A program made the translations under genes and the position numbers. 18,257 bases of DNA from a virus. Lineage: Duplodnaviria; Heunggongvirae; Uroviricota; Caudoviricetes. Under the pieces are notes generated by a model. That model was given only the letters and a program-made list of their open reading frames with translations. It was not told the DNA's origin and did not search any database. The stretch lies in IMG/VR virus record IMGVR_UViG_2600254997_000004; one strand, 5' to 3'. This document shows positions 615 through 18,257 of this stretch, one piece after another (within the stretch, counting starts at the first letter, position 1; every line of letters starts with the position of its first letter).

Positions 615-618
615 GGGA

Positions 619-1317
619 TTACTGCGAAAGTTTGTTAATGGAAAGGAAGCCGCCAAAGTTGCCGACGTTATTGCGAAACTTACAGCCGCTCAGGCATTTG
701 CTGCATTTATCCTTCGTGATATCGGACGTCGGCTGGTCATATTCATCCGCGACAGCCGGACCGTGATAACCACACTCATCACCGCGATAGGTCCAGGTGC
801 AGGTGTTGGCCAGCATGATACGCCCCGGAAAAACAGCACCATCCGTTTCCGTCGGTGTGGACAACACAAAGGAGGCACTGACCGCACTCAGTTCGCTGCA
901 CTGCTCGATGCGCCAGCGGCTGATCACCTCCTGCTCCGGATCGGCGTCGCTGTTTCCGTTGACGAAGTTCACCGCATCCAGAAAACGGGCGTAAACCTTA
1001 CGCCTGACCACCGTTCCGCCGACCAGACTCTGCAGGTCTTCCGCCATCCCCGTGACCATGCCGTGCAGGTTAGAAACCGTCAGTGTCGGACGGGCAGCAC
1101 TGCCCTTGCCGTTCAGTTCAAATCCTGTCCCCTGAATGGGGTATGCCTGATACTGCCGCCCCTGCCAGGTAACCGGCTCACCTTTTTCGTTCTGCTCATT
1201 ACAGAAAAAATAACGTTCACCACCGACCTCTGTCAGATCGATTTCCCAGAGCACCACCTGGGCTGACTGAGTGAGGCGTGTCGTCTCATGATGTGTTTCC
1301 TGTGGAATATCCTGCAT
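619..1317 (-). CDS. L: Minor tail protein L (lambda gpL-like, 232 aa)
   Basis: ATG at 1317 preceded by AGGAGG with 6-nt spacing; same length as lambda gpL with a Cys-rich C-terminus; sits between M and K as in lambda. Confidence 0.85.
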   Translation of the reverse strand: MQDIPQETHHETTRLTQSAQVVLWEIDLTEVGGERYFFCNEQNEKGEPVTWQGRQYQAYPIQGTGFELNGKGSAARPTLTVSNLHGMVTGMAEDLQSLVGGTVVRRKVYARFLDAVNFVNGNSDADPEQEVISRWRIEQCSELSAVSASFVLSTPTETDGAVFPGRIMLANTCTWTYRGDECGYHGPAVADEYDQPTSDITKDKCSKCLSGCKFRNNVGNFGGFLSINKLSQ

Positions 1318-1326
1318 CAGAGCCTC

Positions 1327-1656
1327 CTATGCCACGACCTGTTCAAAATCTGCCGTTATGGTTACCCACAGCGCCCCCACGCTTGCCGACCATTTACGAC
1401 AAACCACCCTAATCGGTTTCCAGTCATAAGGTGGCGTCCACTGAAATGCGCGGACGCCACCGTGCCGTTCCAGAAAGGCTTTTAAAGATGGGTGTTCACA
1501 TTTACGAACACGTATCGTCACGCTGTAAGTCGACAACTGGTTATTCAGTCCCGCCGCACGACGCTGTTCATAACCATCGCCCAGCTTCACTGTCACCACT
1601 TTCGGCTCTGATACCACATTCATATCCGGGCGCACTTTCCAGTGAAACGTCTCCAT
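1327..1656 (-). CDS. M: Minor tail protein M (lambda gpM-like, 109 aa)
   Basis: 109 aa, the lambda gpM length; its ATG overlaps the tape measure stop (TAATG); conserved position between H and L. Confidence 0.85.
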   Translation of the reverse strand: METFHWKVRPDMNVVSEPKVVTVKLGDGYEQRRAAGLNNQLSTYSVTIRVRKCEHPSLKAFLERHGGVRAFQWTPPYDWKPIRVVCRKWSASVGALWVTITADFEQVVA

Positions 1657-4600: not shown

Positions 4601-4730
4601 GCATACGGGCAGAAGACCGTTCTGCATCGCTGGCTGCACCATTCAGAAGGTTTTTGATACGGGGGATTTCATTTTTAAACTCTGCCGCATCAATCCCCAA
4701 ATCAATGACCAGGTTGGCTATCTGGTCCAT
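1656..4730 (-). CDS. H: Tail tape measure protein (lambda gpH-like, about 1024 aa)
   Basis: Long coiled-coil-rich ORF; C-terminus NNDGTNGQIGPAALKAVYD matches the lambda gpH C-terminal motif. Start placed at ATG 4730 (MDQIANLVIDLG, GGAGGTG upstream); the ORF-track start at 4760 is a TTG extension. Confidence 0.9.
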   Translation of the reverse strand: MDQIANLVIDLGIDAAEFKNEIPRIKNLLNGAASDAERSSARMQRFMERQTQAARQTTQAASSAATAASVHAQTVEKNAQAHERMAREVEKTRQRMEALSQKMREEQAQAMALAEAQDKAAAAFYRQIDSVKQANAGLQELQRIQQQIRQARNSGGIGQQDYLALISEVTAKTRVLTQAEEEGTRQKVAFIRQLKEQATRQNLSSSELLRAKAAQLGVSSAAEVYIRKMERAGKATHSLGLKSAAARQEIGVLIGELARGNLGALRGSGITLANRAGWIDTLMSPKGMMLGGVIGGIAAAVYGLGKAWYDGQKEGEEFNRQLSLTGHYAGVTAGQLWTLSRAISGNGITQHAAAGALAQVVGSGAFRGNDIGMVARAAAQMERSVGQSISDTINQFKRLKDDPVNAAKALDNELHFLTATQLEQIRILGEQGRSSDAARIAMSALAEETGRRTADIDNNLNALGSTLQTLSDWWKQFWDAAMNIGREDSLDAQIATLQEKVSRAKRLPWTASSSQVEYDQQRLNELQEKKRQKDLQDAKEQAERNYQEQQKRRNAENAALNRMNETEAARHQREIARINAMQYADQAVRDAAIQRENERYEKALASGKKKTRETRNDEATRLLLQYSQQQAQVEGQIAAARQSAGIATDRMTEAHKQLLALQQRISDLDGKKLTADEKSVLARKDELIQALTLLDVKQQELQKQTALNDLKKKTIQLTSQLAEEERAQRQQHDLDIATVGMGDQQRQRYQVQLSLRQKYQQQLEQLRRDSEQKGTYNTDDYRKAEQALTESLNRQLNENRRYWQQLEIAQGNWKNGAMRAFQNFTADADNAAGTAEQMLTAAFNSAGNALATFCTTGKLNFKSFTASLLSDLAKIMAQMSMMQAVKGIGSAFGWGSAATASVTPNADGGVYQSADLSRYSGTVVNRPTFFAFAKGAGVMGEAGPEAILPLRRGADGKLGVVADIGGSGMAMFSPQYNIEINNDGTNGQIGPAALKAVYDLGKKAAADFMQQQARDGGRLSGAYR

Positions 4731-5052
4731 AACGCACACCTCCGGAAATACCTTCCCCAAGATGCATCAGTTCTTCGTCCGTTCGCTCCGGTATCCCGTT
4801 CTCTTCCGGTAAAAGGCTGAAATCAGCCACCGCAGCATCACTGCTGCCGGACACCATTCTCACGATCAATGCCTTCAGCGAGGCAAACTGCGCATCCATC
4901 CACACATCACTGAAGCTCTGCATCCGGAAATAATCGCCCCACTCACCAAGCTCAGTGGCCGACATTTCCGACAGCATCCGCCGCCAGTCTGCCCGCCGGA
5001 ACTCCCGGGCAAGCCGCATGACAAACTGCATTTCCCGCGTCAGGACTTTTCC
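4702..5052 (-). CDS. T: T segment of the G-T tail assembly chaperone, reached by programmed -1 frameshift from G
   Basis: The frame encoding ...MQFVMRLAREFRR... is open from 5064 to the stop at 4702 and lies -1 relative to G. It overlaps the last G codons at heptamer G GAA AAG (5052..5046), analogous to the lambda G GGA AAG slip site. Confidence 0.75.
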   Translation of the reverse strand, partial: GKVLTREMQFVMRLAREFRRADWRRMLSEMSATELGEWGDYFRMQSFSDVWMDAQFASLKALIVRMVSGSSDAAVADFSLLPEENGIPERTDEELMHLGEGISGGVRYGPDSQPGH

Positions 5053-5429
5053 GGCGTCAGCGCCTCATGCTCATCATCCCCGGCATTATCAATGGTCCCC
5101 ATACCGCTCAGCGACAGAACCATCTCCGCCCCCGCACCCAGGGCATCATACGACCATGTTGTAATAACGGATGCGCAAAGCGTCTCTACATCCTTAGACT
5201 GATCCGCATTCCACAGTGAGCGGGAAACCAGCCAGGCATTGATATCCATCCCCATCCGCAGAAAAGCAATCTGTCGTTCAGCCTCCGGCAGTTCTCCCTC
5301 TTCGGCATCAAACTTTGCCGTTCGCTGCTGAACAAACGCCAGATATTCAATTCTCTGCAGCCCGGACAGCTCACTGAGCACCACGGACTGCTTTTCATAA
5401 TTAAACGTGCCCTGTTTCAGAAACATCAT
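5040..5429 (-). CDS. G: Tail assembly chaperone G (lambda gpG-like)
   Basis: MMFLKQGTFNYEK...LSELSGLQRIEYLAF resembles the lambda gpG N-terminus (MFLK...); GGTGGAG Shine-Dalgarno upstream of the ATG pair at 5429/5426; acidic C-terminal tail; the ORF-track start at 5468 is a TTG extension. Confidence 0.85.
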   Translation of the reverse strand: MMFLKQGTFNYEKQSVVLSELSGLQRIEYLAFVQQRTAKFDAEEGELPEAERQIAFLRMGMDINAWLVSRSLWNADQSKDVETLCASVITTWSYDALGAGAEMVLSLSGMGTIDNAGDDEHEALTPEKS

Positions 5430-5441
5430 GTTCTCCACCTG

Positions 5442-5466
5442 AAAAAAAGCCCCGGATAACCGGGGC
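5442..5466 (-). terminator. Intrinsic terminator-like hairpin after major tail gene V
   Basis: On the minus strand GCCCCGG-TTAT-CCGGGGC (7-bp GC stem, 4-nt loop) is followed by 7 U; lies between the V stop (5487) and the G ribosome binding site. Confidence 0.6.
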
Positions 5467-5486
5467 AAATGATGAGTATCGTCCTG

Positions 5487-6230
5487 TTAACCTGCGGCGC
5501 TGACAGCCACCGTAGCCACTGCCACAAAATCGCCGTCAGAAGTCATGCCCACAATGCTGACACTGCCCTGCTTCACGCCTTTCACCGTGGCCACAAGCCC
5601 GTTCAGGGTCACCGTGGCAGTCTGTGGATCTGTCGAATGCACACTGATCGCTTTGCCACTGGCTCCGTCAGGTTTTACTGTAAAGGTCAGCGTGGTGGTT
5701 GCTCCCACTTTTACACTGGCAGATGCCGGTGCCACCGTCAGCCCGGTAACGCCCACGGTTTCAGTGCCTTCCTCTGCCAGATACGGACGCCCCACACCGC
5801 TGATTTTCACTGTGCGGGTCATCACGTCTTTTGAGGCAATGGTTTTACCCAGTGAGCTCAGCCAGCCACGGAAAACATCAACAGTGCCGTTGGGATATTT
5901 GATACGAAACGCGCAGACTTCACCGGAGTCGAACAACTGAACCAGTTTTTTCTGCCCGCTGTCACCCGGACGCCAGGCCAGCGTCGCCGAAGTATCACCA
6001 ACGGATTCCTGCCCCTGGGTTGTCGTTTTCCAGTCTGCATCTTCATCATCGAGATAAGTGTCATCTTCTGCATCAGCGGTCATTTCGCCAGGTTGCAGAT
6101 CCTTCACCATCGCAAGACGCAGCCAGTCAGTGTCCGACAAAGGGTTCGCAAATGCGTCGCCGTTGCCGGTATACATCCAGAACGTCGTTCCCGCACCTTT
6201 CGTTTTTGCCAGTGGATTTGGTGTGGTCAT
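5487..6230 (-). CDS. V: Major tail protein V with C-terminal Ig-like (Big_2-type) domain
   Basis: Start at ATG 6230 (MTTPNPLAKTKGAGTT) preceded by AAGGAGG; N-terminus resembles lambda gpV (MPVPNP...KGAGTT); Thr/Val-rich C-terminal Ig-like segment. Confidence 0.9.
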   Translation of the reverse strand: MTTPNPLAKTKGAGTTFWMYTGNGDAFANPLSDTDWLRLAMVKDLQPGEMTADAEDDTYLDDEDADWKTTTQGQESVGDTSATLAWRPGDSGQKKLVQLFDSGEVCAFRIKYPNGTVDVFRGWLSSLGKTIASKDVMTRTVKISGVGRPYLAEEGTETVGVTGLTVAPASASVKVGATTTLTFTVKPDGASGKAISVHSTDPQTATVTLNGLVATVKGVKQGSVSIVGMTSDGDFVAVATVAVSAAG

Positions 6231-6240
6231 TACCACCTCC

Positions 6241-6642
6241 TTAATTCGTGTACGTGATCTGGTACGTGATTTCCGCCATCGCCCAGGTGGCCATCTCATT
6301 ATCACGTTGATAGTTAAAACCGAGTGGGATCAGGGTGTCGATGAGTCCGGAAAGTGCCGGTACATCATTCAGGGCCGGGAAAATGGTGCTCTCCATCCAC
6401 ATATCCAGCTCTGAATCCGGTGCTTGTGCCCGGATGAAGACAGCAATATGCAGAACAGCCTGCCAGTCATCTTCATCCGTCATTTTTCCGGTGTACTGAG
6501 CATCACTCAGCCACACCGACACGGCAGGCAGTTCCTGCGCATCAACAAATGCCGGAAGCCCGTCAAAAAACGTGGCGCTGTCTCCACACTGTTCCCGAAG
6601 GCGTGCCAGTACGACCTGGCGGATTTGTGTATGTCGGTTCAT
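6241..6642 (-). CDS. U: Tail terminator protein U (lambda gpU-like)
   Basis: MNRHTQIRQVVLARL...ATFFDG resembles the lambda gpU N-terminus; its ATG overlaps the Z stop as ATGA (translational coupling). Confidence 0.85.
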   Translation of the reverse strand: MNRHTQIRQVVLARLREQCGDSATFFDGLPAFVDAQELPAVSVWLSDAQYTGKMTDEDDWQAVLHIAVFIRAQAPDSELDMWMESTIFPALNDVPALSGLIDTLIPLGFNYQRDNEMATWAMAEITYQITYTN

Positions 6643-7217
6643 CGGGTCAGCCATAACCTCAGTTGTTGTTTCAGTGCATAACCCAACTGTTTCGGCATTT
6701 CCGCAGCAATGATGCGGTCGCGGGCATCTTCAAATGCCTGTGTCAGCGGTCCGGACAACGGGATTTTCACCACATCAATGGGGTAACGATTTTTGCCATC
6801 AATACGCCGCATCACATGCCAGCGACCATTCGCCAGTTGCTGAATAAACGCATCCCGGAAAAGATATTTACCCACCTTCAGCACACTGCCACGGTACTGC
6901 AGTTTTCCACCACGCCGGGCCAGTCTGACCCGGGCTGTCCCCAGCTTAATGGCGGGCAGATTGCCCCGGTTGACGCGGATCCTGGCCGTCATTTTTCCTG
7001 ACGGACTGGCTTTAAACACCCGGACACGCTGACGTACCAGTTTCAGGGGTATCCCTTTCACCTGGTTATCTCCCGCAACGGTATTCCCGGCAACCTGCCG
7101 GGTGGCAACCGAGACCGCTTTCTGTGCCACACGGTTTATCGCCCATGCGCTGGCCTGTGGCACCATACGGGTATCAAGGCTGTTCAGATTGCGGATGGCA
7201 TTCTCAAGCCCCTTCAT
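6639..7217 (-). CDS. Z: Tail completion protein Z (lambda gpZ-like, 192 aa)
   Basis: 192 aa, same as lambda gpZ; motifs IKLG.ARV and NGRWHVM.R..GKNRYPIDVVKIP match my recollection of gpZ; AGAGGTG upstream of the ATG. Confidence 0.85.
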   Translation of the reverse strand: MKGLENAIRNLNSLDTRMVPQASAWAINRVAQKAVSVATRQVAGNTVAGDNQVKGIPLKLVRQRVRVFKASPSGKMTARIRVNRGNLPAIKLGTARVRLARRGGKLQYRGSVLKVGKYLFRDAFIQQLANGRWHVMRRIDGKNRYPIDVVKIPLSGPLTQAFEDARDRIIAAEMPKQLGYALKQQLRLWLTR

Positions 7218-7228
7218 CCCACACCTCT

Positions 7229-7468
7229 TTACTCAATAAAGATCATTGGCTTACCGTTAAAGCGTTCATGCCGTGTGACCGTCCAATGTTGTCCGTCATA
7301 AACAACGCGATCCCCGCGCCGTGGGCGGTATCCCAAAGAAAACACCACCAGAGAGACAGCAGGTCCGGACAGAGCATTCAGCTCTGCCAGTGTTTCGCCC
7401 GGGATCACAGCCATATCGACATCATTAATCGAGGGCTGTCTTTCCCATCTTTCTGACCGTGATCGCAT
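7229..7468 (-). CDS. Small head-tail connector or head completion protein (FII-position gene), 79 aa, function not recognised
   Basis: ORF with ATG start, tightly packed between the upstream small structural gene and Z in the same orientation; no recognisable motif. Confidence 0.5.
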   Translation of the reverse strand: MRSRSERWERQPSINDVDMAVIPGETLAELNALSGPAVSLVVFSLGYRPRRGDRVVYDGQHWTVTRHERFNGKPMIFIE

Positions 7469-7497
7469 CCATACGCGCTGCCAGCCGAGAAAAGGGA

Positions 7498-7821
7498 TCA
7501 GACATTGAGTTTTACCGGCACTTCTTCTGCACTGGTTCCGGCATCTGCCCAGACAACCCCGACCAGCGGATCAGAGCCGCTGTTAGTCAGCTGAACTTTT
7601 CCGGACTTCAGATAAACCTTCTTACCCGTTTTCATGTCATCCGTTTTCAGCTTAGGCAGGATAAACACACCTTCGGTCATGCCGTCGCCTGTTTCACCCT
7701 GTGGAATATCGGTCAGCGCCACCGCAAAAACATCACCCACCTGCACCAGATCTCCGCTGCTGATGGCTGCACTGGCAACAATCGCCACCGTTTTTCCTTC
7801 TTCTACAAAATTCTTTGCCAT
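7498..7821 (-). CDS. Small capsid-associated protein (DUF2190-like; possible head decoration or connector protein)
   Basis: Start at ATG 7821 (MAKNFVEEGK) with GGAG 6 nt upstream, placed just downstream of the capsid terminator; Gly/Val-rich beta-type sequence of a kind often found right after major capsid genes. Confidence 0.6.
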   Translation of the reverse strand: MAKNFVEEGKTVAIVASAAISSGDLVQVGDVFAVALTDIPQGETGDGMTEGVFILPKLKTDDMKTGKKVYLKSGKVQLTNSGSDPLVGVVWADAGTSAEEVPVKLNV

Positions 7822-7864
7822 AACTGTCTCCGCACAGCCCCGTTCAGGGGCTGATTTCAGGTAC

Positions 7865-7883
7865 AAAAAAAGCCCTTACGGGC
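7865..7883 (-). terminator. Intrinsic terminator-like hairpin after the major capsid ORF
   Basis: On the minus strand GCCC-GUAA-GGGC (GNRA-type loop) is followed by 7 U, 25 nt after the capsid stop at 7908. Confidence 0.55.
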
Positions 7884-7907
7884 CATCAGAGTTGTTGTCT
7901 GCGACGT

Positions 7908-9866
7908 TTACGCCGTACATTTCACCAGACCGCGGTGATCAACTGGCGCGACACCGGCGTCAATACGCACTTTCGTTGTCACGCCATCCACACTGAAGCC
8001 CTCCATCTGATCAATATATGGCGTATCCACACCGTTGAGATAAGCCACTTCAATCGTATCGGAGCCTTTGGACGCAGCCAGGTAGAAGGTGGTCTGGCTG
8101 TTATCATCAAGACGAGGCTCTGCAATAACGGTCGCAAAATCTTTCACCGGGTTAATAATACCGGCGTTAATGTCAGCCCCCTTGACACTTGAGGAGCGAA
8201 TGACCTGGTTAGCAACAGACTCCATCGCCGTCGGTACCAGTACGAACGCAGGACGAATATTCAGATGACGCTCCCCCTCTTTCTGAACGCGCATCAACTG
8301 GCGGGCTTTATCCAGCGATGCCACGTCCATTGCAGCGCTCTCCAGTACGTTTGCATGTTTCGCTTTATCGAACAGACTTACATTATCTGTGGAGATTTTC
8401 GGGTTAGACGTCAGAATGGCATAAACCAGATCGGCAATAGTGGATTTCGCCGCACGGCCCAGTTTCATCGGGACATCGGTCAGCATATTCAGATCATCAT
8501 TGATAATGGCCTGACGGGTGATACTGAACAGCTCGCCATAGGTCGCCAGTGCAATAGTGGCCTGTTTATCTCCGGTGGTGACGTATTTATATTCCGCCCC
8601 TTCACGCACCTGACGCAGAGCACTGAAGCCCCCCATACCCACACGATGGGCAATTTTAAAATCAGACAACTGACCTTTCCGCGTCCACTGTTCATAGGTT
8701 TCAGGGGCATCTTCCCAGCCCTGCAGAATGGCTTTGTTCGCAACATCCAGCAGAATATTACCGAAGTCAGACGTACTGTGTGTGAACGCCGCACCGACCA
8801 TCTGCATCGGGTTATAACTGGAAACCCCAATACCCCGTTCAGTCAGTGACATACGGGCATATTCACGCAGGGTCATCCCGTTGTAGACATTATCACGTTC
8901 GGTTTTTTCAAATCCGGCACGCGCCATCAGCGCCTGGCGGATCCCGTCCCCCACAAAATTACCGTTACCGGCATAAATATGAGCCGGGGTATTTTTATTG
9001 GATGGCGTGGACTCGCGCCCCATCTCGTTCAACAACTTTTCGCGGGCCTGCTCCAGCGAACATTCAGGATCGGCAAGACACTGAGCCTGCAGCGTCTGAT
9101 AACGCCCGCCAAACATGGCAAACAGATCATTAATACCGTTTACACGCGCTTTTTGCTCTGCCAGTACCTGCGCACGGATACTGTTTTCATCCACCACGGG
9201 TGCTGCTGCCTGCACTGGCGTCCGGGAGGCTGCAGGTTCATCATCCTGTACGCGTGGAGCACTGTTGCGTGGCGGAGTAATCATGTTTCGAATGGATTCC
9301 GGCATCTTTTTAAATTCCTCTGTACGTTTTGACTGAATACATGCCATTGCCTTAACGGCTGGCGTTACCTGATCAGCAAATCCCTGTGCCAGACATTCGG
9401 CACCGGACATCCAGGTCTCATCCGCCAGCATGGCAGCAATTTCATCGGTGGTTTTCCCGGTTTTCTGTGCATAAGCGGGTAACAGAACCGCCTCAACCTT
9501 ATCGAGCAGGTCGGCATAGGTGCGCATGTCCTCCGCATCACCGCCCGTAAAGCCAAATGGTTTATGAATCATCATGAAGGTGTTTTCCGGCATAATGACC
9601 GGGTTTCCCACCATCGCAATGACCGACGCCATTGACGCCGCCACACCGTCGACATAAACGGTAATGGACGCACCATGTGTTTTCAGCGCATTAAAAATGG
9701 CGATGCCTTCAAAGACATCGCCACCCGGTGAATTAATATGGAGATTAATGTGGGTGATATCGCCCAGTGCATTCAGATCACTGATAAACTGCTTCGCTGT
9801 AACACCCCAGAAACCAATCTCGTCATAAATATAAATATCCGCGTCACTCTGGTGACCAGCCTGCAT
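7908..9866 (-). CDS. Prohead protease (ClpP/S14-like), scaffold-like linker and HK97-fold major capsid protein in one ORF
   Basis: N-terminal part has ClpP-like motifs (INSPGGDVFEGIAIFNAL, SMASVIAMVG, MMIHKPFG); an Ala/Gln-rich linker follows; the C-terminal roughly 370 aa look like a major capsid protein. Start placed at ATG 9866 (MQAGHQSDADIYIYDEIG) after the portal stop; the ORF-track start at 10127 overlaps the portal. Confidence 0.75.
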   Translation of the reverse strand: MQAGHQSDADIYIYDEIGFWGVTAKQFISDLNALGDITHINLHINSPGGDVFEGIAIFNALKTHGASITVYVDGVAASMASVIAMVGNPVIMPENTFMMIHKPFGFTGGDAEDMRTYADLLDKVEAVLLPAYAQKTGKTTDEIAAMLADETWMSGAECLAQGFADQVTPAVKAMACIQSKRTEEFKKMPESIRNMITPPRNSAPRVQDDEPAASRTPVQAAAPVVDENSIRAQVLAEQKARVNGINDLFAMFGGRYQTLQAQCLADPECSLEQAREKLLNEMGRESTPSNKNTPAHIYAGNGNFVGDGIRQALMARAGFEKTERDNVYNGMTLREYARMSLTERGIGVSSYNPMQMVGAAFTHSTSDFGNILLDVANKAILQGWEDAPETYEQWTRKGQLSDFKIAHRVGMGGFSALRQVREGAEYKYVTTGDKQATIALATYGELFSITRQAIINDDLNMLTDVPMKLGRAAKSTIADLVYAILTSNPKISTDNVSLFDKAKHANVLESAAMDVASLDKARQLMRVQKEGERHLNIRPAFVLVPTAMESVANQVIRSSSVKGADINAGIINPVKDFATVIAEPRLDDNSQTTFYLAASKGSDTIEVAYLNGVDTPYIDQMEGFSVDGVTTKVRIDAGVAPVDHRGLVKCTA

Positions 9867-9912
9867 CCTGAACCAGGAATTATTCTTCGGACTGGTCGTC
9901 GGTGTACTGCGG

Positions 9913-11388
9913 CTACTGTCGTTTCGTTGCGGCACTGCTGCCTCCTTTATCACTGGCCGGATCGGTATCAAATACCAGATCCAGCTTGCGGTTTTCATCA
10001 ATTTCGGCCTTGCGCCGACGTTTGACATCATCCGGATTACGACCACCTGCACGTACCCAGTCTGATTCTGTCGCCGCTCCACCACGAATCTGGATTTTCC
10101 AGGCCTCAGCCTCCTTAACAGGGTCAATCCACGGCATCACTGGTCCGGAATACACCGCGGTATACAGTGAAGAACGGTCAAGATCGCGGGGTAGCCTGAT
10201 AACACCGGATGCCACAGCCTGTTTCAGCCAGGCACGATACATCGGGCGGGTGACGGCACCAATAAACCAGTCCTGCAGGATCAGGTAGCCATCAGTAGAC
10301 TCAACCAGTTCCTGACGCTGGGCGCTGTAAGTGCCGTTATAGTTGCGTGCCGTACTGGAAAAACTCAGACGACTGCCCGCCGCCACGGCACGCAACTGAC
10401 CATTACGAAAAGTTTCAAGGTTAGGATTGGGACGATCCGACTTCACCATTCCGATTTCTTCGCCGGGTTTCAGATCGTCGTAAATAATGCCTGGCTGAAT
10501 GGTAAGCTCGCGTTCATTCTCCTTGCTGTAATTACCATCCGTTTCATAGCTCTGTCCGTCGCCTTTGCGGATGTACATCCCCAGAGCAGCGGCGACCCTT
10601 GCTGCAGTCAGCTCAGAATCTTCATACTCTTTCAGGGCGCTGAGGCGGATCAGCACACCGGACAATAAAGACGTCCCGCGCATCTGGTGCAGACGGCGAA
10701 CAAATTTAAGATGCAGCATTCGCTCTGCATCCACTTCTTTGGTTTCCATCTGCCGTCCGGATACGGGACGGCTTTTATACACCAGATATTTTTCGGGACG
10801 CCCCCAGTCATCAACAAACACGCCCTGATTCAGCCTGTTGCTCTCATCACTGGTCATGGGAATAAAGTCCGGCTCGAGCGCCTCCAGCCAGAAATGAACA
10901 CCGGCAGAAGGCGTCAGGCTGTTTATGCGCCCGGAAACCATCTGGGCAAACACCTCACCATCGCGCAGCCAGGTACGCAGCATCAGACGTTCCAGCATCG
11001 GACGGGTAAACTGCCCGGTGACTTCCGGACTGACAGACCATTCACTCCATCGGGTGCGTATCTCCGCTGCCAGATCACGGGCAATGGCCCCATTGCGTAA
11101 TACCGGATGTGGCTCGACAATAATCCCGTTTTTCCCCACCACCCGTTCTTCCAGCTTGTCAAATACACCAATAACCAGATCGTGGTTGTTATCAAGGTAA
11201 CGGGCCTGCTCACGTAACGACACGGCCCCGTACTGGCTTAACTGGTCGGCAGTTCGGTTTTCCCGCCGGGCTTTGTGTGTCCGCGTCGTTTTTACGGCCT
11301 CATAAGCCTGGATCACCGCACGGGAACGCAGCCTTGCCGCTTTCCATCCTGGTGAAAAAACGCCAATCACATCATCAAGAATTGCCAT
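9913..11388 (-). CDS. Portal protein (lambda gpB family)
   Basis: About 490 aa between W and the protease-capsid gene; start at ATG 11388 (MAILDDVIG) overlapping the W stop (TGATG). Confidence 0.8.
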   Translation of the reverse strand: MAILDDVIGVFSPGWKAARLRSRAVIQAYEAVKTTRTHKARRENRTADQLSQYGAVSLREQARYLDNNHDLVIGVFDKLEERVVGKNGIIVEPHPVLRNGAIARDLAAEIRTRWSEWSVSPEVTGQFTRPMLERLMLRTWLRDGEVFAQMVSGRINSLTPSAGVHFWLEALEPDFIPMTSDESNRLNQGVFVDDWGRPEKYLVYKSRPVSGRQMETKEVDAERMLHLKFVRRLHQMRGTSLLSGVLIRLSALKEYEDSELTAARVAAALGMYIRKGDGQSYETDGNYSKENERELTIQPGIIYDDLKPGEEIGMVKSDRPNPNLETFRNGQLRAVAAGSRLSFSSTARNYNGTYSAQRQELVESTDGYLILQDWFIGAVTRPMYRAWLKQAVASGVIRLPRDLDRSSLYTAVYSGPVMPWIDPVKEAEAWKIQIRGGAATESDWVRAGGRNPDDVKRRRKAEIDENRKLDLVFDTDPASDKGGSSAATKRQ

Positions 11389-11600
11389 CAGAACCTCGCC
11401 AGCCGGTACCCGGGATGCCCCCGTCGTCGTGTAATCAGAGCCGCAAGGCGGCGCTCCCACTCCTGCCGTCCCTGCCGGATCTCAGATAAGTTTTCCATTG
11501 TCATCTGCTGACCATTAAAGGTGACGGATTTTCCGTCCAGCACCGCCATTTCAGCTTCCGTATAACGCTGAATCATGGCTTCGATATCATTCTGGTTCAT
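11388..11600 (-). CDS. W: Head-tail joining protein (lambda gpW-like, 70 aa)
   Basis: Small protein ending ...ITRRRGHPGYRLARF, comparable to the gpW C-terminus; its ATG at 11600 overlaps the terminase stop (ATGA) with GGAGG 6 nt upstream. Confidence 0.75.
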   Translation of the reverse strand: MNQNDIEAMIQRYTEAEMAVLDGKSVTFNGQQMTMENLSEIRQGRQEWERRLAALITRRRGHPGYRLARF

Positions 11601-13699
11601 AACCATCCTCCGGAAGTCAGCCAGGGGTTAACATCGTCAGTTACTGTTTTCTTCCGTTTTTGTTTTTTAACAGGCGTGGATACCGGTTCCGGTGAGGGTG
11701 ACGGTTCGGTACTGTCCGGGACACACTCCAGCCAGGTTTCCCGGCTCGCCCACTCCGGTGCATCCGGCCAGCGGATCTTTTCGTATCCATGCAGAATGAC
11801 CAGAGCCTCGGCATACACCATCAGGTCAAAAGCTTCGTTGGCACCGCGACCCGGCTTACTCCATTTCCCGTCACTACTCCGCTCTTCATACGTCAGTTCG
11901 TCGTAAAACCAGCTCCCCAGCCAGTCAGGGAAATGCACATAGCCGGGACCTGGCGAGTCACGCCATAACGCGTTATTCACCCGGTCTTTCAGGGCATCCG
12001 TCTGAAGAAGCCAGAGCGGCACATCACCTGCGGCCTGCGCCCGTCGGCCCGTTCGTCCGGTGTTATCAGGGAATGTACGGGTGATCAGTTTTGCGCGCCG
12101 GATGCTGTCGCCCTTAAACAGGTAAATACGTTTACCAAGGCCATCACGACGGCAACGACGCCAGAATTTATAGGCATTATCAGTGACCCCGTCTTCACCG
12201 CCGGAGTCCACCGCCATTGCCATCAGTCGCATTTGTTGAGAAGGATCGGAGGCCAGCGGCCAGCTTTTATGAAAAACATCCGTCAGCAGGACATCCCAGT
12301 CTTCCGGATAGCTGGCCGGATCAATTCGCTGGCTCTCCCCGTCGCTGTCACCGCGCAATGACTGCGTGATGTTGTAACGATCAATAATCCAGCGTTCGCC
12401 ACGGCTGCCATAGCCCGTTACCTGAACCACAAAACGGCGATGACGTCCCGCCTGCACATCAACTGTCGCCACCAGGAAATTAACGCCATCCGGCACACTG
12501 CGGGAAGGAACTGGCTCTGCCCGCTGCTCAAGCAGTTCACTTTTTCGTTGCTCCATGCTGGCACGGGGAAGATAAGGTAATCCCCAGTCGGTATTGATAA
12601 CCGTCTTGAGTGTTTCTTCACTTCCGGTTGTCTCGTATTCCTGTTCTGCAGTAAGCAGTTTGTAAACGAGTTGCGAGAGTGTCTGGTAAGCAGCTGCCGG
12701 ACCCTCCATCCAGAATGACGCAATACGTGAGCGTCGGGGATCACCATAACGACTGCCATCCGCATTGATGGATTCACCATCCCGCAACCAGACCCCACGT
12801 CCGTTCAGCTCACGTTTTTGTTCAGGCATAATCCGTCCTGAACAGGAAGGACACTGAATATAAGCCGCCTCACTTGCCAGCACGGGATCGGCAATATCAC
12901 GGAAACCAGCAACCACATCGCCGCAGGGCTGAAAATACTCACCACAGTGTGGACAGGGCCAGTACCAGCGACGGCGATCGCCACGGTTATAGAGCGACAG
13001 TATCCCCGTGGTTGGTGGAGCCTCATGCGGTGAAGTCCGTCGCCATTTCACATCCTTCACATCCCTGCCGGGGGAACTCTCCACCAGCGTCATACCACTG
13101 GACATAAATGTGGTGGTACGTTTTGAGGCAAGAGAGAAGGCATCCCCCTCGCCATCAATATCTTCCGGAAAACGGTCATAATCCGTCAGCGCCACGCATT
13201 TATAATCTGATGAGGACATGATATTGACTGACGGCCAGCCGATTTTCAGGTAGTTGCCAGCAAGGAATGTTCTGTCATAAACGTTGTTGTCATTTTTGTT
13301 CGGACTCAGGCGACTGACCACTTCCGGGCTGACGCGAAACGTTCTGGCAAGTCGTTTTTTGGAGTGTTCGCGGGCTTTTTCCTCCGTCATCTGAATGATC
13401 AGCATATCAGCAGGATCGCAAATCACATTGTAAATCACCCAGCCGTCAATCAGGCCGATAGTCTTGCCAGTTCGTGCCGGGCCAACAAATATCACTGCGT
13501 CGTATTCACGCGAGGCCAGGCAGTTCATCGGCTCAATAACATACGGTGCCACCAGCGGATCCCACGGGACTGAATTCCCGGCCCCCATGGGCACCCGCAT
13601 ATACTGAGCAACGGCATCAGCAACCCGCATTCGTCTCGGTGCGCGAAGGATATAACCTGAATCGGTTCGTGCTGCCTTTGCGGTTTCCTGATTCAGCAT
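11597..13699 (-). CDS. Terminase large subunit (lambda gpA family, 700 aa)
   Basis: 700 aa with a Cys-rich CPHCGEYF...CPSCSG segment like lambda gpA (CPHCGEE...); start overlaps the Nu1 stop (TAATG) with AGGAGGAG upstream. Confidence 0.9.
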   Translation of the reverse strand: MLNQETAKAARTDSGYILRAPRRMRVADAVAQYMRVPMGAGNSVPWDPLVAPYVIEPMNCLASREYDAVIFVGPARTGKTIGLIDGWVIYNVICDPADMLIIQMTEEKAREHSKKRLARTFRVSPEVVSRLSPNKNDNNVYDRTFLAGNYLKIGWPSVNIMSSSDYKCVALTDYDRFPEDIDGEGDAFSLASKRTTTFMSSGMTLVESSPGRDVKDVKWRRTSPHEAPPTTGILSLYNRGDRRRWYWPCPHCGEYFQPCGDVVAGFRDIADPVLASEAAYIQCPSCSGRIMPEQKRELNGRGVWLRDGESINADGSRYGDPRRSRIASFWMEGPAAAYQTLSQLVYKLLTAEQEYETTGSEETLKTVINTDWGLPYLPRASMEQRKSELLEQRAEPVPSRSVPDGVNFLVATVDVQAGRHRRFVVQVTGYGSRGERWIIDRYNITQSLRGDSDGESQRIDPASYPEDWDVLLTDVFHKSWPLASDPSQQMRLMAMAVDSGGEDGVTDNAYKFWRRCRRDGLGKRIYLFKGDSIRRAKLITRTFPDNTGRTGRRAQAAGDVPLWLLQTDALKDRVNNALWRDSPGPGYVHFPDWLGSWFYDELTYEERSSDGKWSKPGRGANEAFDLMVYAEALVILHGYEKIRWPDAPEWASRETWLECVPDSTEPSPSPEPVSTPVKKQKRKKTVTDDVNPWLTSGGWL

Positions 13700-14193
13700 T
13701 ACTCCTCCTGCTGTAATTCCTCCTCATCATCCGCACCTGCTTCAGTCACCCGCAGGGCTATCTGATCGCGCAGATCATCAATAATGGACAGAACACGGCT
13801 CACAGCGGCAGGCTGCAGACCGCAGTCACGTTCCAGAATATCCGGTAATGTCTCCAGCACCTGCACGACCGCTTTTGCCCAGATGGCAAACTCCCGTCTG
13901 ACATCACTGGCCGGAATGAGTTGTGCCGTTTCCTGTTCGAACTTAAGACGCTCACGTTCAGACTGATACCAGGCTTTGCGCTCATGCGCGTCCATTTCGC
14001 CTTCTGCAACCGGCGGTGGCAATGCCAGAAATGCCGACACAATATCAACCACCCGATAAAGCTTGAGGTTGCTTTCATGCCCCCCTGCAACGGGTAGATT
14101 TTGCAGCCTTGCCGCAGCAGTCTGGCGATGTACACCTGACAGTGCCGCCAGTTGACTGATATTCAGCGTCAGATTTTTTAACTCTCGATCCAT
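13699..14193 (-). CDS. Terminase small subunit (lambda Nu1-like, 164 aa)
   Basis: N-terminal HTH-like segment NISQLAALSGVHRQTAAARL; about 175 bp downstream of the putative cosN; GGAG upstream of the ATG. Confidence 0.8.
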   Translation of the reverse strand: MDRELKNLTLNISQLAALSGVHRQTAAARLQNLPVAGGHESNLKLYRVVDIVSAFLALPPPVAEGEMDAHERKAWYQSERERLKFEQETAQLIPASDVRREFAIWAKAVVQVLETLPDILERDCGLQPAAVSRVLSIIDDLRDQIALRVTEAGADDEEELQQEE

Positions 14194-14379
14194 ACCCGCT
14201 CCAGAATGTTTTAAACATGCATCTTGCGAACAACTTTAGGCAAACGGTGTTAGTGATGAACAAAAAACAATCAAAATCGACACCGCAAAAATAAAACTAC
14301 TGCAATATCAATCAATTACAGCAGTGGTGATGACGAATGAAATTTCAAAAACTAGCCTTTTTCCGCGACGCTCCCGCCC
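14194..14379 (-). other. cos site: putative cosN (14368-14379, GGGCGGGAGCGT on the minus strand) plus the cosB-like region extending to the Nu1 start
   Basis: Minus-strand sequence ...GACGGGTCCT...CACG GGGCGGGAGCGT CGCGGAAAAAGG...TTCGTCATCACC... parallels the lambda right end and cos (ACGGGTCCT...TACG GGGCGGCGACCT CGCGGG...TTCGTCATAACT) as I remember it; spacing to Nu1 is similar; GTGATGA repeats at 14255 and 14325. Confidence 0.65.
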
Positions 14380-14550
14380 CGTGGCAGGCCACCCCACCAG
14401 GAGGACCCGTCAGCCTGACAGCCATGACGAACGTCTGATACAGCGCCCTGCATGAATGGCATCGGGATAATCCAGAAAGGAATAGCATCGTACCTACAAG
14501 AATCTGTGTGAGCGTCCTGTTTCTTCCACCCCCGCACAGGACTGGCGAGC

Positions 14551-14727
14551 ATGAGGGACAAACCCACGAATCATAAACGCGGTAAAAACCCGGTGTGCAT
14601 CGTTTTTGATTATTCCCGCACACTCACGCAGAAGGAATTCCCCGTCGGGCTACGATCATGGTTAATGCGGGAATACGGCGACGATACAGCGCATGATGTG
14701 TCAGGCTTGAATACCTTTATCCGTTAA
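14551..14727 (+). CDS. Hypothetical 58-aa basic protein, convergent with rha
   Basis: ATG-initiated ORF MRDKPTNHKRGKNPVCIVFDYSRTLTQKEFPVGLRSWLMREYGDDTAHDVSGLNTFIR; weak ribosome binding site; below the ORF-track length cutoff. Confidence 0.25.
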   Translation: MRDKPTNHKRGKNPVCIVFDYSRTLTQKEFPVGLRSWLMREYGDDTAHDVSGLNTFIR

Positions 14728-14808
14728 AAGGGATATCAGTTAAGTTATCCCGTGCAGGGTATAAGCCATTATCAAGCCCACCCGTAGATAGGCTTTGTAA
14801 TGACATCT

Positions 14809-15333
14809 TCAATTAATCAGCAGTTCAGGCTGTGTCACCTGCAAAATGTATTCATGCTCGACAGCCAGGACACGCTTCTCTTTCTTCCGTTCGTTCATTA
14901 ACCGACTGCCGATCGTACCTTTCAGCTTTGAGCGTGTTTCTTTGATGGCGTAGCGGTGCTGCATTTCTTCGCCAATTGCCATGCGGCGGCTCAGTTGCTC
15001 TGCCATCCAGTTGAATGCTGCGATATAGCTCTCCTTGATTGCCGCAGCAGCTTTCCCGGTGAACCCCATCACAACCATGATCCAGCCATCTTTCGTCAGG
15101 CTGTACATCGGGCGAACCTTGCCCTGCTCATCGATATAATCAGCCGACGCAAAATTGCGTTGGCTAAACTCACGCGAGCAATCAGCCTTAACCTGCTCGA
15201 TTTTCCTGAGAACATCACCGTGTCGCTTGCCGAAGTACTTGGCAATTTTTCTGGATGTGGTAACGACCTCTCCGTTTTTGGCTTGCACCATTTCTCGGAA
15301 GTCGAAGGCTGGAATAACTGAATGATTATTCAT
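14809..15333 (-). CDS. rha: Rha-family phage regulatory protein
   Basis: Start at ATG 15333 (MNNHSVIPAFDF...) with AAGG upstream; IAKYFGKRHGDVLRKIE resembles the Rha family signature (FGKRHD.VLRDI); the ORF-track N-terminal extension overlaps Rz and a terminator. Confidence 0.65.
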   Translation of the reverse strand: MNNHSVIPAFDFREMVQAKNGEVVTTSRKIAKYFGKRHGDVLRKIEQVKADCSREFSQRNFASADYIDEQGKVRPMYSLTKDGWIMVVMGFTGKAAAAIKESYIAAFNWMAEQLSRRMAIGEEMQHRYAIKETRSKLKGTIGSRLMNERKKEKRVLAVEHEYILQVTQPELLIN

Positions 15334-15476
15334 AGCGTCTTTACCTTTTAGAAAGTGAGCCTGTCTCACAGAAAAGCCGCCCGAGAGAGGTCGCCACCTA
15401 TAACGGCATTTCTCAGGCTCGCTTACTGAAAGGCTCTCGTTAATATGCGCGTGAGATGCGCGTTTACTGCGGACAT

Positions 15477-15499
15477 AAAAAAGCCCCGCATCGCGAGGC
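15477..15499 (-). terminator. Intrinsic terminator-like hairpin after Rz/Rz1
   Basis: Minus-strand RNA GCCUCGC-GAU-GCGGGGC (7-bp stem with one G-U pair) followed by 6 U, 32 nt after the Rz stop. Confidence 0.55.
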
Positions 15500-15530
15500 T
15501 CATTAAATTGACTTTGTGATTTGCAAAAAA

Positions 15531-15998
15531 TTATTTCAGGCATTGCGTCCTGATGTACTCCTGAAGCGTTCTCAGTGCTGTTTGGTCACGGATAATTCCG
15601 TCCCGGATACCGAGAACGTTTCGTCCAGCAACTGAAGAGAGTTCGACGGTGGCATCATTGCCCATGCCGGAGGAGCTGGAGGTTTTGGCTGAGGCTGGCA
15701 CAGGGCATTTTCCTTTGACGAGCACCCGACCACCATTATCAAGCTTACGCCGAAGAGCATCATTTTCAGCTTTCGCATTGGCTAACTCCTTCGTGTATTT
15801 AGCATCGAGTACATCAGCAGCACGCTGGCGTTGCTGCATGTCAGTAATGGTGGCGGTCGCCTGCTTCAGCTCACTGACTTTTTTATCACGCTGCTCTTTG
15901 TAGGCGATGGCGTTATCACGGTAATGATTAACAGCCCATGACAGGCAGAGGATGATGCAAATAACCAGAGCGGAGATAATCGCGGTTACCCTGCTCAT
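15531..15998 (-). CDS. Rz: Spanin, inner-membrane subunit (Rz-like)
   Basis: [34 protein letters not shown] closely matches the lambda Rz N-terminus as I recall it; ATG overlaps the endolysin stop (ATGA). Confidence 0.9.
15572..15778 (-). CDS. Rz1: Spanin, outer-membrane lipoprotein subunit (Rz1-like), embedded in Rz in the +1 frame
   Basis: [19 protein letters not shown] with lipobox Cys, then a Pro-rich mature region ([12 protein letters not shown]), like lambda Rz1 (MLKLKMML...VVGC...PPPPAW); lies entirely inside Rz. Confidence 0.85.
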
Positions 15999-16492
15999 TG
16001 CTGCCCCCACAAACAGACTTCACGCTCAATATCACGACGGGTCATCAGCCCTTTCCATTGCTTACCGCCAGCGTATGTCCAGCGACGTAGCTGGTCACAT
16101 GCGCCTTTGATATCACCCTGGTTTATTTTGCGAAGAAGCGTCGATGTTCTGAAATTACCAGCGCCCACGTTGTAAACGAACGAGTAAAGAGCGCCGCGCG
16201 TTGTTTCCGGTATATCGACTTTGATGTACGGGTTAATTTGTCTGGCGACCATGGCAAGGTCTTTATTCAGGAGGGCTTTGCATTCTGCTTCGGTATACGT
16301 TTTACCGGGAATGATGTCTTTTCCGGTGTGTCCGTGACATACAGTCCATACGCCAACGATATCTTCGTATGGTATGTAGCTGACACCTTCCTGGCCATCG
16401 TCACCACTCGGACCAGTGATGAGCACAGACGCTATGGCAACAGCCCCACCACCAATAGCAGCAGCAACAGCCTTGCGTAATGATGGCGACAT
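15995..16492 (-). CDS. R: SAR endolysin (phage 21 R-like lysozyme)
   Basis: N-terminal Gly/Ala-rich SAR segment ([20 protein letters not shown]) followed by a lysozyme core ([16 protein letters not shown]); very similar to R21 as I recall it. Confidence 0.9.
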
Positions 16493-16707
16493 TATTCACC
16501 TCTCGCAGCCTTACGCTTATCTTCTTTAATCTTGAAATAAAGGTTTGTCAGATACGTCAGCAAGCCAAACACCAGGCTACCCAATACGCCTATTGCCACC
16601 CACTGGGATGGGGAGACTTTGTCCAGCAACTGCAGTAGCCAGTATCCCGTCCCCACCGCTGACGTGGTGTATGACACACCTGTTGTTATTTTTTCCATCT
16701 GGTACAT
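16492..16707 (-). CDS. S: Pinholin (phage 21 S-like) with dual-start motif
   Basis: [10 protein letters not shown]...[40 protein letters not shown] resembles S21; Met1 and Met4 give 71-aa and 68-aa forms; GGGAG upstream of the ATG at 16707. Confidence 0.9.
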
Positions 16708-16807
16708 ACCCCGTCTCCCGTTATCCGGAAGCTGACAACAATAAAAAGCCACCAGTTAATTCCTGATGGCCCTGATGCATAAACGTCATAATACCTGACT
16801 GTTATGA

Positions 16808-16935
16808 TTGACAATAATGATAATGTTTATATAGAAAGGTTCCCGATGTGTGTTACATATCATTTCTCCACGGGGAATATCCCCACGCCAGCGCAGACTC
16901 TTTTACCCGTTCTCTTCTGCGCTGGCTCTTTTTTA
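16808..16935 (+). ncRNA. Candidate small RNA: sigma70-like promoter (TTGACA-N16-TATAGA, 16808-16835) plus two stem-loops and a U-tract terminator (to 16935)
   Basis: -35 TTGACA at 16808-16813 and -10 TATAGA at 16830-16835; hairpin GGGGA-ATA-TCCCC (16872-16884); perfect 11-bp inverted repeat GCCAGCGCAGA/TCTGCGCTGGC (16887-16926) followed by TCTTTTTTATT; antisense to the tR'-to-S spacer. Confidence 0.3.
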
Positions 16936-17115
16936 TTATGCTGCTGCATTTACCTCTGGCACCATGCTTTCTATCTCAACACAATACGTGGTACTTCTTG
17001 TAACCAATATCATAACGATTAATCGACATAGAATTTCTCCCGTGTACAGGAACAGAGTTAAAAAGCCGGAACCGGAATCAAATCACAGGATGACCATCTG
17101 CCAGTGGCAGGTCAT

Positions 17116-17142
17116 AAAAAAAAGGCCGCGCCATGCGCAGCC
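17116..17142 (-). terminator. Strong intrinsic terminator (tR'-like) about 410 nt upstream of the holin gene
   Basis: Minus-strand RNA GGCUGCGC-AUG-GCGCGGCC (8-bp stem) followed by 8 U; its position relative to S mirrors lambda tR'. Confidence 0.7.
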
Positions 17143-17296
17143 AGAACTCACAAGGAAAATGATAGAAGGAAATAACATTAGTGATGTACGCATGGCGCCT
17201 CCCGCTAAGTTCTGCAATGATCAAACAGAATTCGCTACGTGCCCTTAAAACTCAATCATTTAGCCCCTCCAAGGAGGATTCACCATGCGGTTGATT

Positions 17297-17325
17297 TTTT
17301 AATAAACAGTAAACAAAAAAGTCAA
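17297..17325 (-). promoter_or_regulatory. Candidate late promoter (pR'-like) about 170 nt upstream of the tR'-like terminator
   Basis: Minus-strand TTGACT (plus 17320-17325) followed after 15-16 bp by TATTAA/ATTAAA; AT-rich upstream; spacing to the terminator is like the lambda pR'-6S-tR' arrangement. Confidence 0.3.
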
Positions 17326-17328
17326 GGA

Positions 17329-17439
17329 TTATTCATTCTGTTTTTTCATCATCGGCCACAGCAATACCACAATGCCGCAGACCAGAGCGCCATCAGTCAG
17401 TACCAACATTATCCTGCTGGTGAAATCCATCATCACCAT
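17329..17439 (-). CDS. Hypothetical 36-aa hydrophobic peptide (single predicted transmembrane helix, basic C-terminus)
   Basis: ATG at 17439..17437, stop TAA at 17331..17329; MVMMDFTSRIMLVLTDGALVCGIVVLLWPMMKKQNE; no clear Shine-Dalgarno; ends 4 nt before the candidate -35. Confidence 0.3.
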   Translation of the reverse strand: MVMMDFTSRIMLVLTDGALVCGIVVLLWPMMKKQNE

Positions 17440-17573
17440 CACTAAAAAGCAGGATCACAACAGCAAGCAGACACAGTTTATAAAACAATGTTCAGAAAAC
17501 GCATTCAGCATGCCTAAGGTTCTATTCCTACGAATAGCCAACTTGCAACTTAAAATATTATTTATGCAGCCAA

Positions 17574-17813
17574 TTAAATTCTGGTCCTTACAATATCAAC
17601 CTGAAGATTCTTATCTTGTGCTGATTGATAAATGACAAACCTTTTACTACCTGCATTGAAAGAAGTAGACAAAACCAGACAATTATCATAACGAGCAAGA
17701 ACATAATACCAACCATCATTATAATTAATCATTTCATATTCTTTCTTAAACTGCGGTTTGTAATATCCTGTCAGAAATGAAAAAAGCCAGAAATATGCCA
17801 CAAAAGCAATCAT
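17574..17813 (-). CDS. Hypothetical 79-aa protein with N-terminal hydrophobic segment, encoded in the AT-rich island
   Basis: ATG at 17813 (the ORF-track start at 17816 is GTG); MIAFVAYFWLFSFLTGYY then a polar domain; surrounding DNA is far more AT-rich than the rest of the prophage; weak ribosome binding site. Confidence 0.45.
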   Translation of the reverse strand: MIAFVAYFWLFSFLTGYYKPQFKKEYEMINYNDGWYYVLARYDNCLVLSTSFNAGSKRFVIYQSAQDKNLQVDIVRTRI

Positions 17814-17865
17814 CACAATCTCAAAAAAATGTTTTTTATAAATGGCTTATCATAGAAGCATGATA

Positions 17866-18257
17866 CTGATGAATCCCCTAATGATTTTTATCAAAATCAT
17901 TAAGTTAAGGTAGATACACATCTTGTCATATGATCAAATGGTTTCGCCAAAAATCAATAATCAGACAACAAAATGTGCGAACTCGATATTTTACACGACT
18001 CTCTTTACCAATTCTGCCCCGAATTACACTTAAAACGACTCAACAGCTTAACGTTGGCTTGCCACGCCTTACTTGACTGTAAAACTCTCACTCTTACCGA
18101 ACTTGGCCGTAACCTGCCAACCAAAGCGAGAACAAAACATAACATCAAACGAATCGACCGATTGTTAGGTAATCGTCACCTCCTCAAAGAGCGACTCGCT
18201 GTATACCGTTGGCATGCTAGCTTTATCTGTTCGGGCAATACGATGCCCATTGTACTT
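17866..18257 (+). mobile_element. IS10 (IS4 family, Tn10-type) outside end and 5' portion; continues beyond the window
   Basis: From 17866 the sequence reads CTGATGAATCCCCTAATGATTTTTATCAAAATCATTAAG..., which I recognise as the IS10 terminal inverted repeat, followed by the IS10 transposase start; abrupt junction with the AT-rich island. Confidence 0.85.
17973..18257 (+). CDS. IS10 transposase, N-terminal part (truncated by window end)
   Basis: ATG at 17973 (IS10 bp 108) opens MCELDILHDSLYQFCPELHLKRLNSLTLACHALLDCKTLTLTELGRNLPTKARTKHNIKRIDRLLGNRHLHKERLAVYRWHASFICSGNTMPIVL, open to the end of the window. Confidence 0.85.
   Translation, partial: MCELDILHDSLYQFCPELHLKRLNSLTLACHALLDCKTLTLTELGRNLPTKARTKHNIKRIDRLLGNRHLLKERLAVYRWHASFICSGNTMPIVL

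Follow-up and report, generated by a model that had tools for sequence, protein, structure and literature searches.

The stretch analysed here (18,257 bp in its entirety, hereafter the window) is the whole of draft contig ALNX01000084.1 of GCA_000754045.1. The accession ALNX00000000 belongs to Escherichia coli E851/71 (PMC3897749), an O142:H6 enteropathogenic E. coli (EPEC) strain that, like E2348/69, has been used in volunteer challenge (PMC3502317). Positions 1-17865 align end to end and collinearly with a prophage of E2348/69, at 98.9% identity over 17.9 kb, and gene calls and Pfam families on the source contig place the holin, endolysin, Rz, terminase, portal, head and tail genes on one strand in collinear order. 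The lysis cassette occupies 15531-16707 on the minus strand and comprises a class II holin gene (16492-16707), a lysozyme gene (15995-16492) and an Rz-like gene (15531-15998), as indicated by gene calls, Pfam and homolog annotation. Upstream of the cassette in the sense of transcription, and therefore at higher coordinates, lie two terminator-like hairpins, a small DUF3927 gene, the remnant of a larger membrane-protein gene and, at the very end of the contig, one end of an IS10 element.

Several differences from the E2348/69 prophage are spread along the contig. All single-base indels (at 321, 7433, 15524, 17444 and 17831) fall in homopolymer runs, and they are probably draft sequencing errors rather than signs of true pseudogenes. 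Through them, the DUF3927 gene and a small head gene at about 7211-7486 (91 aa in E2348/69, Pfam Gifsy-2, annotated 'DNA breaking-rejoining protein') read as frameshifted, and a 244-aa Rha ORF arises (14809-15543, minus strand), which in the gene-position index occurs on ALNX01000084.1 only. In parallel, 108 of the 161 mismatches are concentrated in the 2-4 kb interval, within the tape-measure gene. Small indels are also clustered there, at about 2021-2055, and this interval looks like a mosaic patch when the two sequences are compared. The tape-measure ORF itself is intact in the window (1034 aa) and annotated as frameshifted in E2348/69, and the window carries an extra 8 bp, CAGCCTGA, at 14411-14418.

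The segment 17866-18257 on the plus strand corresponds to the first 392 bp of IS10 counted from its outside end, interrupted by the end of the contig. It belongs to the IS10-Left type (PGAP name 'IS4-like element ISVsa5 family'). Indeed, when the two arms of Tn10 in plasmid R100 are taken as references, namely IS10-Left adjoining gltS/jemA and IS10-Right adjoining tetD/tetC, 391 of 392 bases are identical to the former and 385 of 392 to the latter, and the window has the IS10-Left base at all six positions that distinguish the arms in this stretch (IS nt 24, 25, 27, 47, 83 and 107). The sole private change relative to IS10-Left, at IS nt 319 (His71Leu), lies 74 bp short of the contig end and is possibly an error. 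The 23-bp outside-end repeat CTGATGAATCCCCTAATGATTTT has a single exact match in the window, at 17866-17888 on the plus strand, and none in 200 shuffles; homology to the empty site breaks off exactly at 17866, the boundary of this repeat. The position of the outside end proposed in the earlier note was thereby borne out, and the match is not confined to the terminal repeat, an outcome the note had named as evidence against itself, as it extends over 392 bp. Equally upheld was the transposase start at 17973, since this ATG is IS nt 108, the same offset as that of the annotated transposase CDS in homologous copies. The window shows the first 95 codons of the transposase gene (17973-18257, plus strand), of which homologous IS10 copies contain the complete 402-aa DDE (DDE_Tnp_1) ORF. 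A Pfam search of the 95-codon fragment returned no match because the DDE domain lies beyond the contig end. Similarly, no inside-end repeat is found within the window, which stops inside the IS at 18257. The contig stops there as the draft assembly is broken inside IS10, which is repeated in the E851/71 genome, so that the other IS end, the second target copy, the Q gene of this strain and the question of Tn10 lie beyond the reach of the window. The element is commonplace, as 1860 of 5426 complete E. coli genomes contain similar sequence.

The outside end also carries the regulatory parts of the element. The Rfam model of the antisense RNA gene RNA-OUT (RF00240) matches the minus strand from 17980 to 17911 over its full length (1-70), with 97.3 bits against a gathering score of 41 and E = 1.4e-19, and the RNA is predicted to fold into the canonical stem-loop at -21.3 kcal/mol, compared with -23.9 for the IS10-Right version. 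The 45 bp upstream of the RNA-OUT 5' end (17981-18025, minus strand) are assigned to the pOUT promoter region. All the sequence upstream of the RNA-OUT start, as part of IS nt 108-318, is identical to IS10-Right of R100, a functional element, and a TAAAAT hexamer can be read 7 nt upstream of that start. The direction of pOUT is fixed by the RNA-OUT match on the minus strand and its integrity by the identity to functional IS10-Right; judged from sequence, pOUT is thus intact and directed towards lower coordinates, so that its transcripts are sense for the remnant ORF and for the lysis and late genes, just as the earlier note had it. A simple promoter scan of the window did not pick up pOUT, and the call rests on the RNA-OUT match and the IS10-Right identity rather than on a consensus match, its activity being taken from published work (PMC9330008, PMC5006887). 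Two of the differences between the IS10 types, at IS nt 83 and 107 (window 17948 and 17972), are both located inside the 35-nt overlap of RNA-IN and RNA-OUT, which implies two mismatches in antisense pairing between types, and cross-regulation may be weakened between IS10-Left and IS10-Right types in genomes holding both. RNA-IN begins at IS nt 81, which makes IS nt 83 its third nucleotide.

The DNA that received the element can be reconstructed from empty sites in E2348/69 and phage 434. In the former, the insertion point lies within a 744-nt ORF encoding a multi-pass membrane protein of 247 aa (WP_001302581.1), and the insertion falls after codon 153. The IS is accordingly inside a gene and not at the boundary of the late region, where the earlier note had located it, and the empty site is coding DNA rather than the non-functional DNA that the note had considered as a counter-finding. 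The E2348/69 ortholog of this gene matches phrog_1521 (222/222 positions, E = 1.9e-154), which PHROGs lists under "unknown function", and the 247-aa protein is assigned to Pfam PF27470 "TfpB" in precomputed tables; NCBIfam and the local copy of Pfam gave no match for it, and the literature on TfpB function yielded only unrelated uses of the acronym. Gene order is shared by E2348/69, O111:H11 and the expert-annotated phage 434, and runs from Q through a terminator, the 247-aa gene, a DUF3927/TciB-like gene and variable DNA to holin, lysozyme and Rz, with Q and the late promoter about 250 bp upstream of the 247-aa gene in all three. In these homologs, the 247-aa gene is the ORF that comes next after Q and its terminator, which places the IS by homology within the late transcription unit, and Q is left untouched.

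What is left of the target gene in the window covers residues from about 151 to 247 (17574-17865, minus strand), as seen from its translation against E2348/69 and from phrog_1521, phrog_3985 and PF27470, and it falls short of a full-length match to phrog_1521. As assembled, the window copy is a pseudogene fragment, and this accessory gene is knocked out. The 79-aa ORF at 17574-17813, treated in the earlier note as a gene of its own, is the C-terminal remnant, namely residues 169-247 read from an internal Met, and phrog_3985 covers exactly these residues. One nucleotide of a homopolymer at 17831 is missing from the remnant. Many genomes in which the 247-aa gene is broken by frameshifts in a neighbouring A7/T7 run also have this 79-aa ORF annotated and, given its own PHROG (phrog_3985) and this repeated annotation, it is recurrent gene debris. 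In many complete genomes the gene is present as two ORFs (about 86-167 aa plus 79 aa), split at or near the A7/T7 pair at the equivalent of about 17820-17840, which points either to a spot prone to frameshifts or to an error that recurs in long-read assemblies. Next to the remnant lies the DUF3927/TciB-like gene for a small membrane protein (17329-17488, minus strand, 52 codons), whose E2348/69 ortholog matches Pfam PF13064 (E = 1.4e-14) and phrog_1470. It is apparently frameshifted in the window, with A5 at 17444 in place of A4 in E2348/69. This frameshift and the deletion at 17831 may both be sequencing errors, so the state of the DUF3927 gene and of the remnant is uncertain.

Between the DUF3927 gene and the holin gene, a terminator scan returned two sites on the minus strand. 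The first, T1 (17116-17142), is an intrinsic terminator of the form GGCTGCGC-ATG-GCGCGGCC followed by T8, with an 8-bp stem of which 7 pairs are G-C; a folding energy of -17 kcal/mol is predicted for the surrounding 55-nt stretch, and the E2348/69, O111:H11 and phage 2B8 loci all have the hairpin in conserved form. The distance from the IS end to T1 is 724 bp, and the holin start at 16707 follows T1 after about 410 bp. The second, T2 (16736-16773), is a terminator-like hairpin that ends in a T-rich tail and directly precedes the holin gene; a 65-nt stretch around it folds at -19.6 kcal/mol, and it is conserved in the empty-site locus of E2348/69 and the filled-site locus of O111:H11. The phage 434 record has a terminator annotated at the T2-equivalent position upstream of S, and the exact T2 hairpin sequence was not found in phage 434. 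In the same interval, a plus-strand 132-aa 'hypothetical protein' at 16850-17248 has only a sub-threshold Pfam match to Sid-5 (18.8 bits against a cut-off of 27) and no other family, and its opposite strand holds the strong intrinsic terminator at 17116-17142; the ORF may be spurious or an antisense accessory gene. A further IS is annotated in this region elsewhere, as E. coli F2_81 (NZ_CP043542.1:1655871-1658135) has an IS903B in the stretch homologous to window 16700-17897, that is from the holin gene to the IS10 insertion point, and different IS families may have struck the accessory region between Q and the holin gene.

The presence of these two sites bears directly on what pOUT can do. 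RNA-OUT is a 69-nt transcript that normally ends at IS nt 47 (PMC5006887), and read-out from pOUT amounts to about 10% of the reference promoter PlacUV, with activation of adjacent genes known (PMC9330008) and reported for IS10 elsewhere as well (PMC4574204). Polymerase starting at pOUT does not pass the Q-loading site and should for this reason terminate, so that unmodified pOUT transcripts are predicted to stop at T1 and T2. The outward promoter thus does face the lysis genes, as the earlier note held, and that it drives the lysis and late genes is unlikely in view of T1, T2 and the end of RNA-OUT inside the IS. The remnant and the DUF3927 gene may receive low constitutive transcription from pOUT, and trace read-through into S may occur as terminators are rarely 100% efficient.

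The junction itself can be assessed from the target site. The 9-mer AGCATGATA at 17857-17865 adjoins the IS and is single-copy in the empty site of E2348/69, and it represents the left copy of the expected target-site duplication. In O111:H11 strains 88.0502 and 88-19539 (both closed) and CFSAN001630 (draft), a complete 1329-bp IS10 occupies the identical position in the identical orientation; AGCATGATA is duplicated around it, flanking both IS10 ends in 88.0502, and the inside-end repeat and the 9-bp duplication are both present. On the strength of this complete IS10 with its duplication at the identical site, sequence comparison confirms the window junction as a genuine transposition junction. 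Among complete E. coli genomes only two have the filled site, both O111:H11, and the 37-bp junction had no exact match in genome_contigs, viral_contigs or metagenome_contigs. Three other draft contigs that end within the 247-aa gene (L012, L013 and L017) do so in plain phage sequence at other positions and are therefore uninformative on IS insertion.

The two insertions share the point, the orientation, the 9-bp target AGCATGATA and the module from Q to the holin gene, and differ in several others. The O111:H11 element is an IS10-Right-type copy that departs from the window at 8 of the 392 bp, with 6 of these differences within the first 107 bp; the prophage backbone has another terminase, Iss and Rz region; the left flank has 3 SNPs, the nearest 112 bp from the junction, at all of which the window agrees with E2348/69; and the host lineages are distinct, O142:H6 EPEC for the window and O111:H11 for the other. 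As IS type, backbone, flank SNPs and host lineage all differ, independent insertions appear somewhat likelier than a single ancestral event followed by module exchange and gene conversion of the IS. The target AGCATGATA departs from the classical consensus NGCTNAGCN and, at one position, also from the relaxed consensus NPuCNNNGPyN (PMC4574204), and it may be a context-dependent IS10 hotspot. The right flank of the target seemed to resemble the IS10 end, with a BLAST match running 32 bp into IS10 (to 17897). This resemblance is attributed to chance, as its score is reached by 66 of 2000 shuffles for the IS10-Left type and 1014 of 2000 for IS10-Right, and other nearby 45-mers score higher. A further reading, that AGCATGATA is a recurrent and orientation-biased IS10 target in lambdoid prophages whose insertions are kept since the lysogen benefits, is very doubtful; if true, the benefit would come, for example, from pOUT-driven constitutive expression of the DUF3927/TciB-like gene or from damped late and lysis expression.

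Taken together, these observations are probably best explained by a simple IS10-Left-type insertion in an accessory gene of the late unit of a lambda-like prophage of E851/71. An IS10-Left-type copy would have transposed into the prophage after codon 153 of the TfpB-family gene. Its transposase gene runs opposite to the late operon, its outside end (pIN, pOUT and RNA-OUT) is on the side of the lysis genes, and the late transcription unit would thereby be lengthened by foreign DNA of at least 1.3 kb. Polymerase modified by Q reads through terminators, as established for lambda. Q-dependent transcription would enter at the inside end of the IS, cross the transposase gene in the antisense direction and exit at 17866. 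In the complete IS10 of the O111:H11 locus, a simple scan found no minus-strand terminator-like site and, as Q-modified polymerase ignores terminators, it would be expected to read through the IS, so that late expression after induction is probably preserved. In parallel, pOUT would produce the 69-nt RNA-OUT ending at IS nt 47, and the minor fraction reading out would cross the remnant and the DUF3927 gene and should stop at T1 and at T2 behind it; for this reason, the lysis and late genes are not expected to be switched on by the IS. A simple insertion further predicts the right junction, where the inside end ...GGGGATCTCTCAG would stand beside AGCATGATACCGAT, and where the 1329 bp of the IS would be followed by AGCATGATA and CCGATAAAAATCG..., which is the N-terminal half of the gene, and then by Q. 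Ten fusion ORFs predicted for this junction (inside or outside end, IS10-Left or IS10-Right, three start codons) were searched for by exact look-up, and none was found for the E851/71 assembly; the only one of the ten on record is the IS10-Right inside-end version, from O111:H11 CFSAN001630. By analogy, we infer a simple insertion for the part beyond the contig end.

The main structural alternative is that a complete Tn10 (IS10L - jemA/gltS ... tetR tetA tetC tetD - IS10R) is inserted here, with the IS10 end as its left arm, which would put about 9.1 kb rather than 1.3 kb between Q and the lysis genes. The presence of all six IS10-Left-diagnostic bases agrees with this reading, the outside end of IS10-Left is the part that abuts target DNA in Tn10, and the junction between IS10-Left and the Tn10 interior occurs in 361 E. 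coli records. However, IS10-Left-type ends at 99% identity or more are found in 1092 records, about three times those with the interior junction, most genomes being multi-copy, and E. coli AR_0085 contains a solo 1329-bp copy identical to IS10-Left in a perfect consensus site, with its own duplication CGCTCAGCT. The IS10-Left-type sequence is, on this comparison, compatible with Tn10 and not diagnostic of it; as the O111:H11 insertion at the same site is a simple IS, and an outside-end fusion ORF at the right junction is not on record, a complete Tn10 is considered unlikely. The absence of a right-junction fusion protein for the assembly, even though the database has its gene calls, can also be read as a sign that the IS10 marks a rearrangement breakpoint, arising by adjacent deletion, inversion or IS10 x IS10 recombination, at which the N-terminal half of the gene, Q and the early region were lost or displaced. 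Adjacent deletions and inversions by IS10 and Tn10 are established knowledge (Kleckner reviews cited in PMC9330008), and in this case the late genes would belong to a decapitated prophage remnant; the contrasting uninterrupted arrangement would have an IS10 end joined to AGCATGATACCGATAAAAATCG and continuing into Q. That absence weighs little, as one SNP or homopolymer error defeats an exact look-up and such errors are present in the draft, and the late region is collinear with the E2348/69 prophage at 98.9% over 17.9 kb, so a breakpoint seems distinctly improbable. That the junction is an assembly chimera, with no IS10 inserted here at all, is extremely unlikely. The contig does end in a repeat and drafts can mis-join at repeats, but the join falls exactly at the first base of the IS10 terminus and directly after the 9-mer of which independently closed O111:H11 genomes have a copy on each side of a complete IS10, and the IS10-Left-diagnostic bases lie no more than 107 bp from the junction, within the reach of a single read.

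A further alternative is that pOUT read-through is biologically meaningful, with constitutive expression in the lysogen of the DUF3927/TciB-like gene or even of S-R-Rz. The orientation is right, pOUT is intact by its identity to IS10-Right, published cases show IS10 activating neighbouring genes (PMC9330008, PMC4574204), the DUF3927 gene stands ahead of the first terminator and the independent O111:H11 insertion has the same orientation, although two same-orientation cases carry no statistical weight. Against this, two predicted intrinsic terminators precede the holin gene, RNA-OUT mostly ends inside the IS (PMC5006887), the DUF3927 gene is frameshifted as read here, and constitutive holin and endolysin would be lethal, a poor fit to a stably maintained strain. 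We regard such a role as improbable. The reading preferred here is still that of a simple insertion with lysis and late genes not switched on.

All in all, this is a known element with known behaviour, an ordinary IS10 in the accessory slot between Q and S. Indeed, pOUT and RNA-OUT have been characterised since the 1980s, and IS hits in the Q-to-S region of lambdoid prophages are well documented. The case is mildly unusual only in that the same non-consensus target was hit, again in the same orientation, by another type of IS10 in an E. coli lineage unrelated to this one. The main value lies in annotation, as the insertion explains why the contig stops and shows that an annotated 79-aa "membrane protein" is debris. 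In addition, E851/71 is a classical EPEC challenge strain, and an IS between the prophage Q and late promoter and the lysis and structural genes is relevant to tests of inducibility.

Comparison with known systems places the insertion among familiar examples. With IS10-Left of Tn10 the window shares 391 of 392 bases, including every IS10-Left-specific base, together with the outside-end repeat, the transposase start, RNA-OUT and the upstream promoter region, and it differs from it in one private base, with 392 of 1329 bp visible. The activation of acrEF in Salmonella and of cat in pSU vectors by pOUT involves the same outward promoter by the outside end facing downstream genes (PMC9330008, PMC4574204). 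In those cases, however, the activated gene lies immediately behind the IS and there was selection for the insertion, whereas in the prophage studied here two predicted terminators and more than 1.1 kb separate the IS from the lysis genes, and no selection is evident. A parallel in position is nmpC::IS5 in the cryptic prophage DLP12 of E. coli K-12. It resembles the present case in having an IS in an accessory gene between the Q antiterminator gene and the S-R-Rz cassette of a lambdoid prophage, and differs in that the element is IS5 rather than IS10, the target is a porin gene and the prophage is defective.
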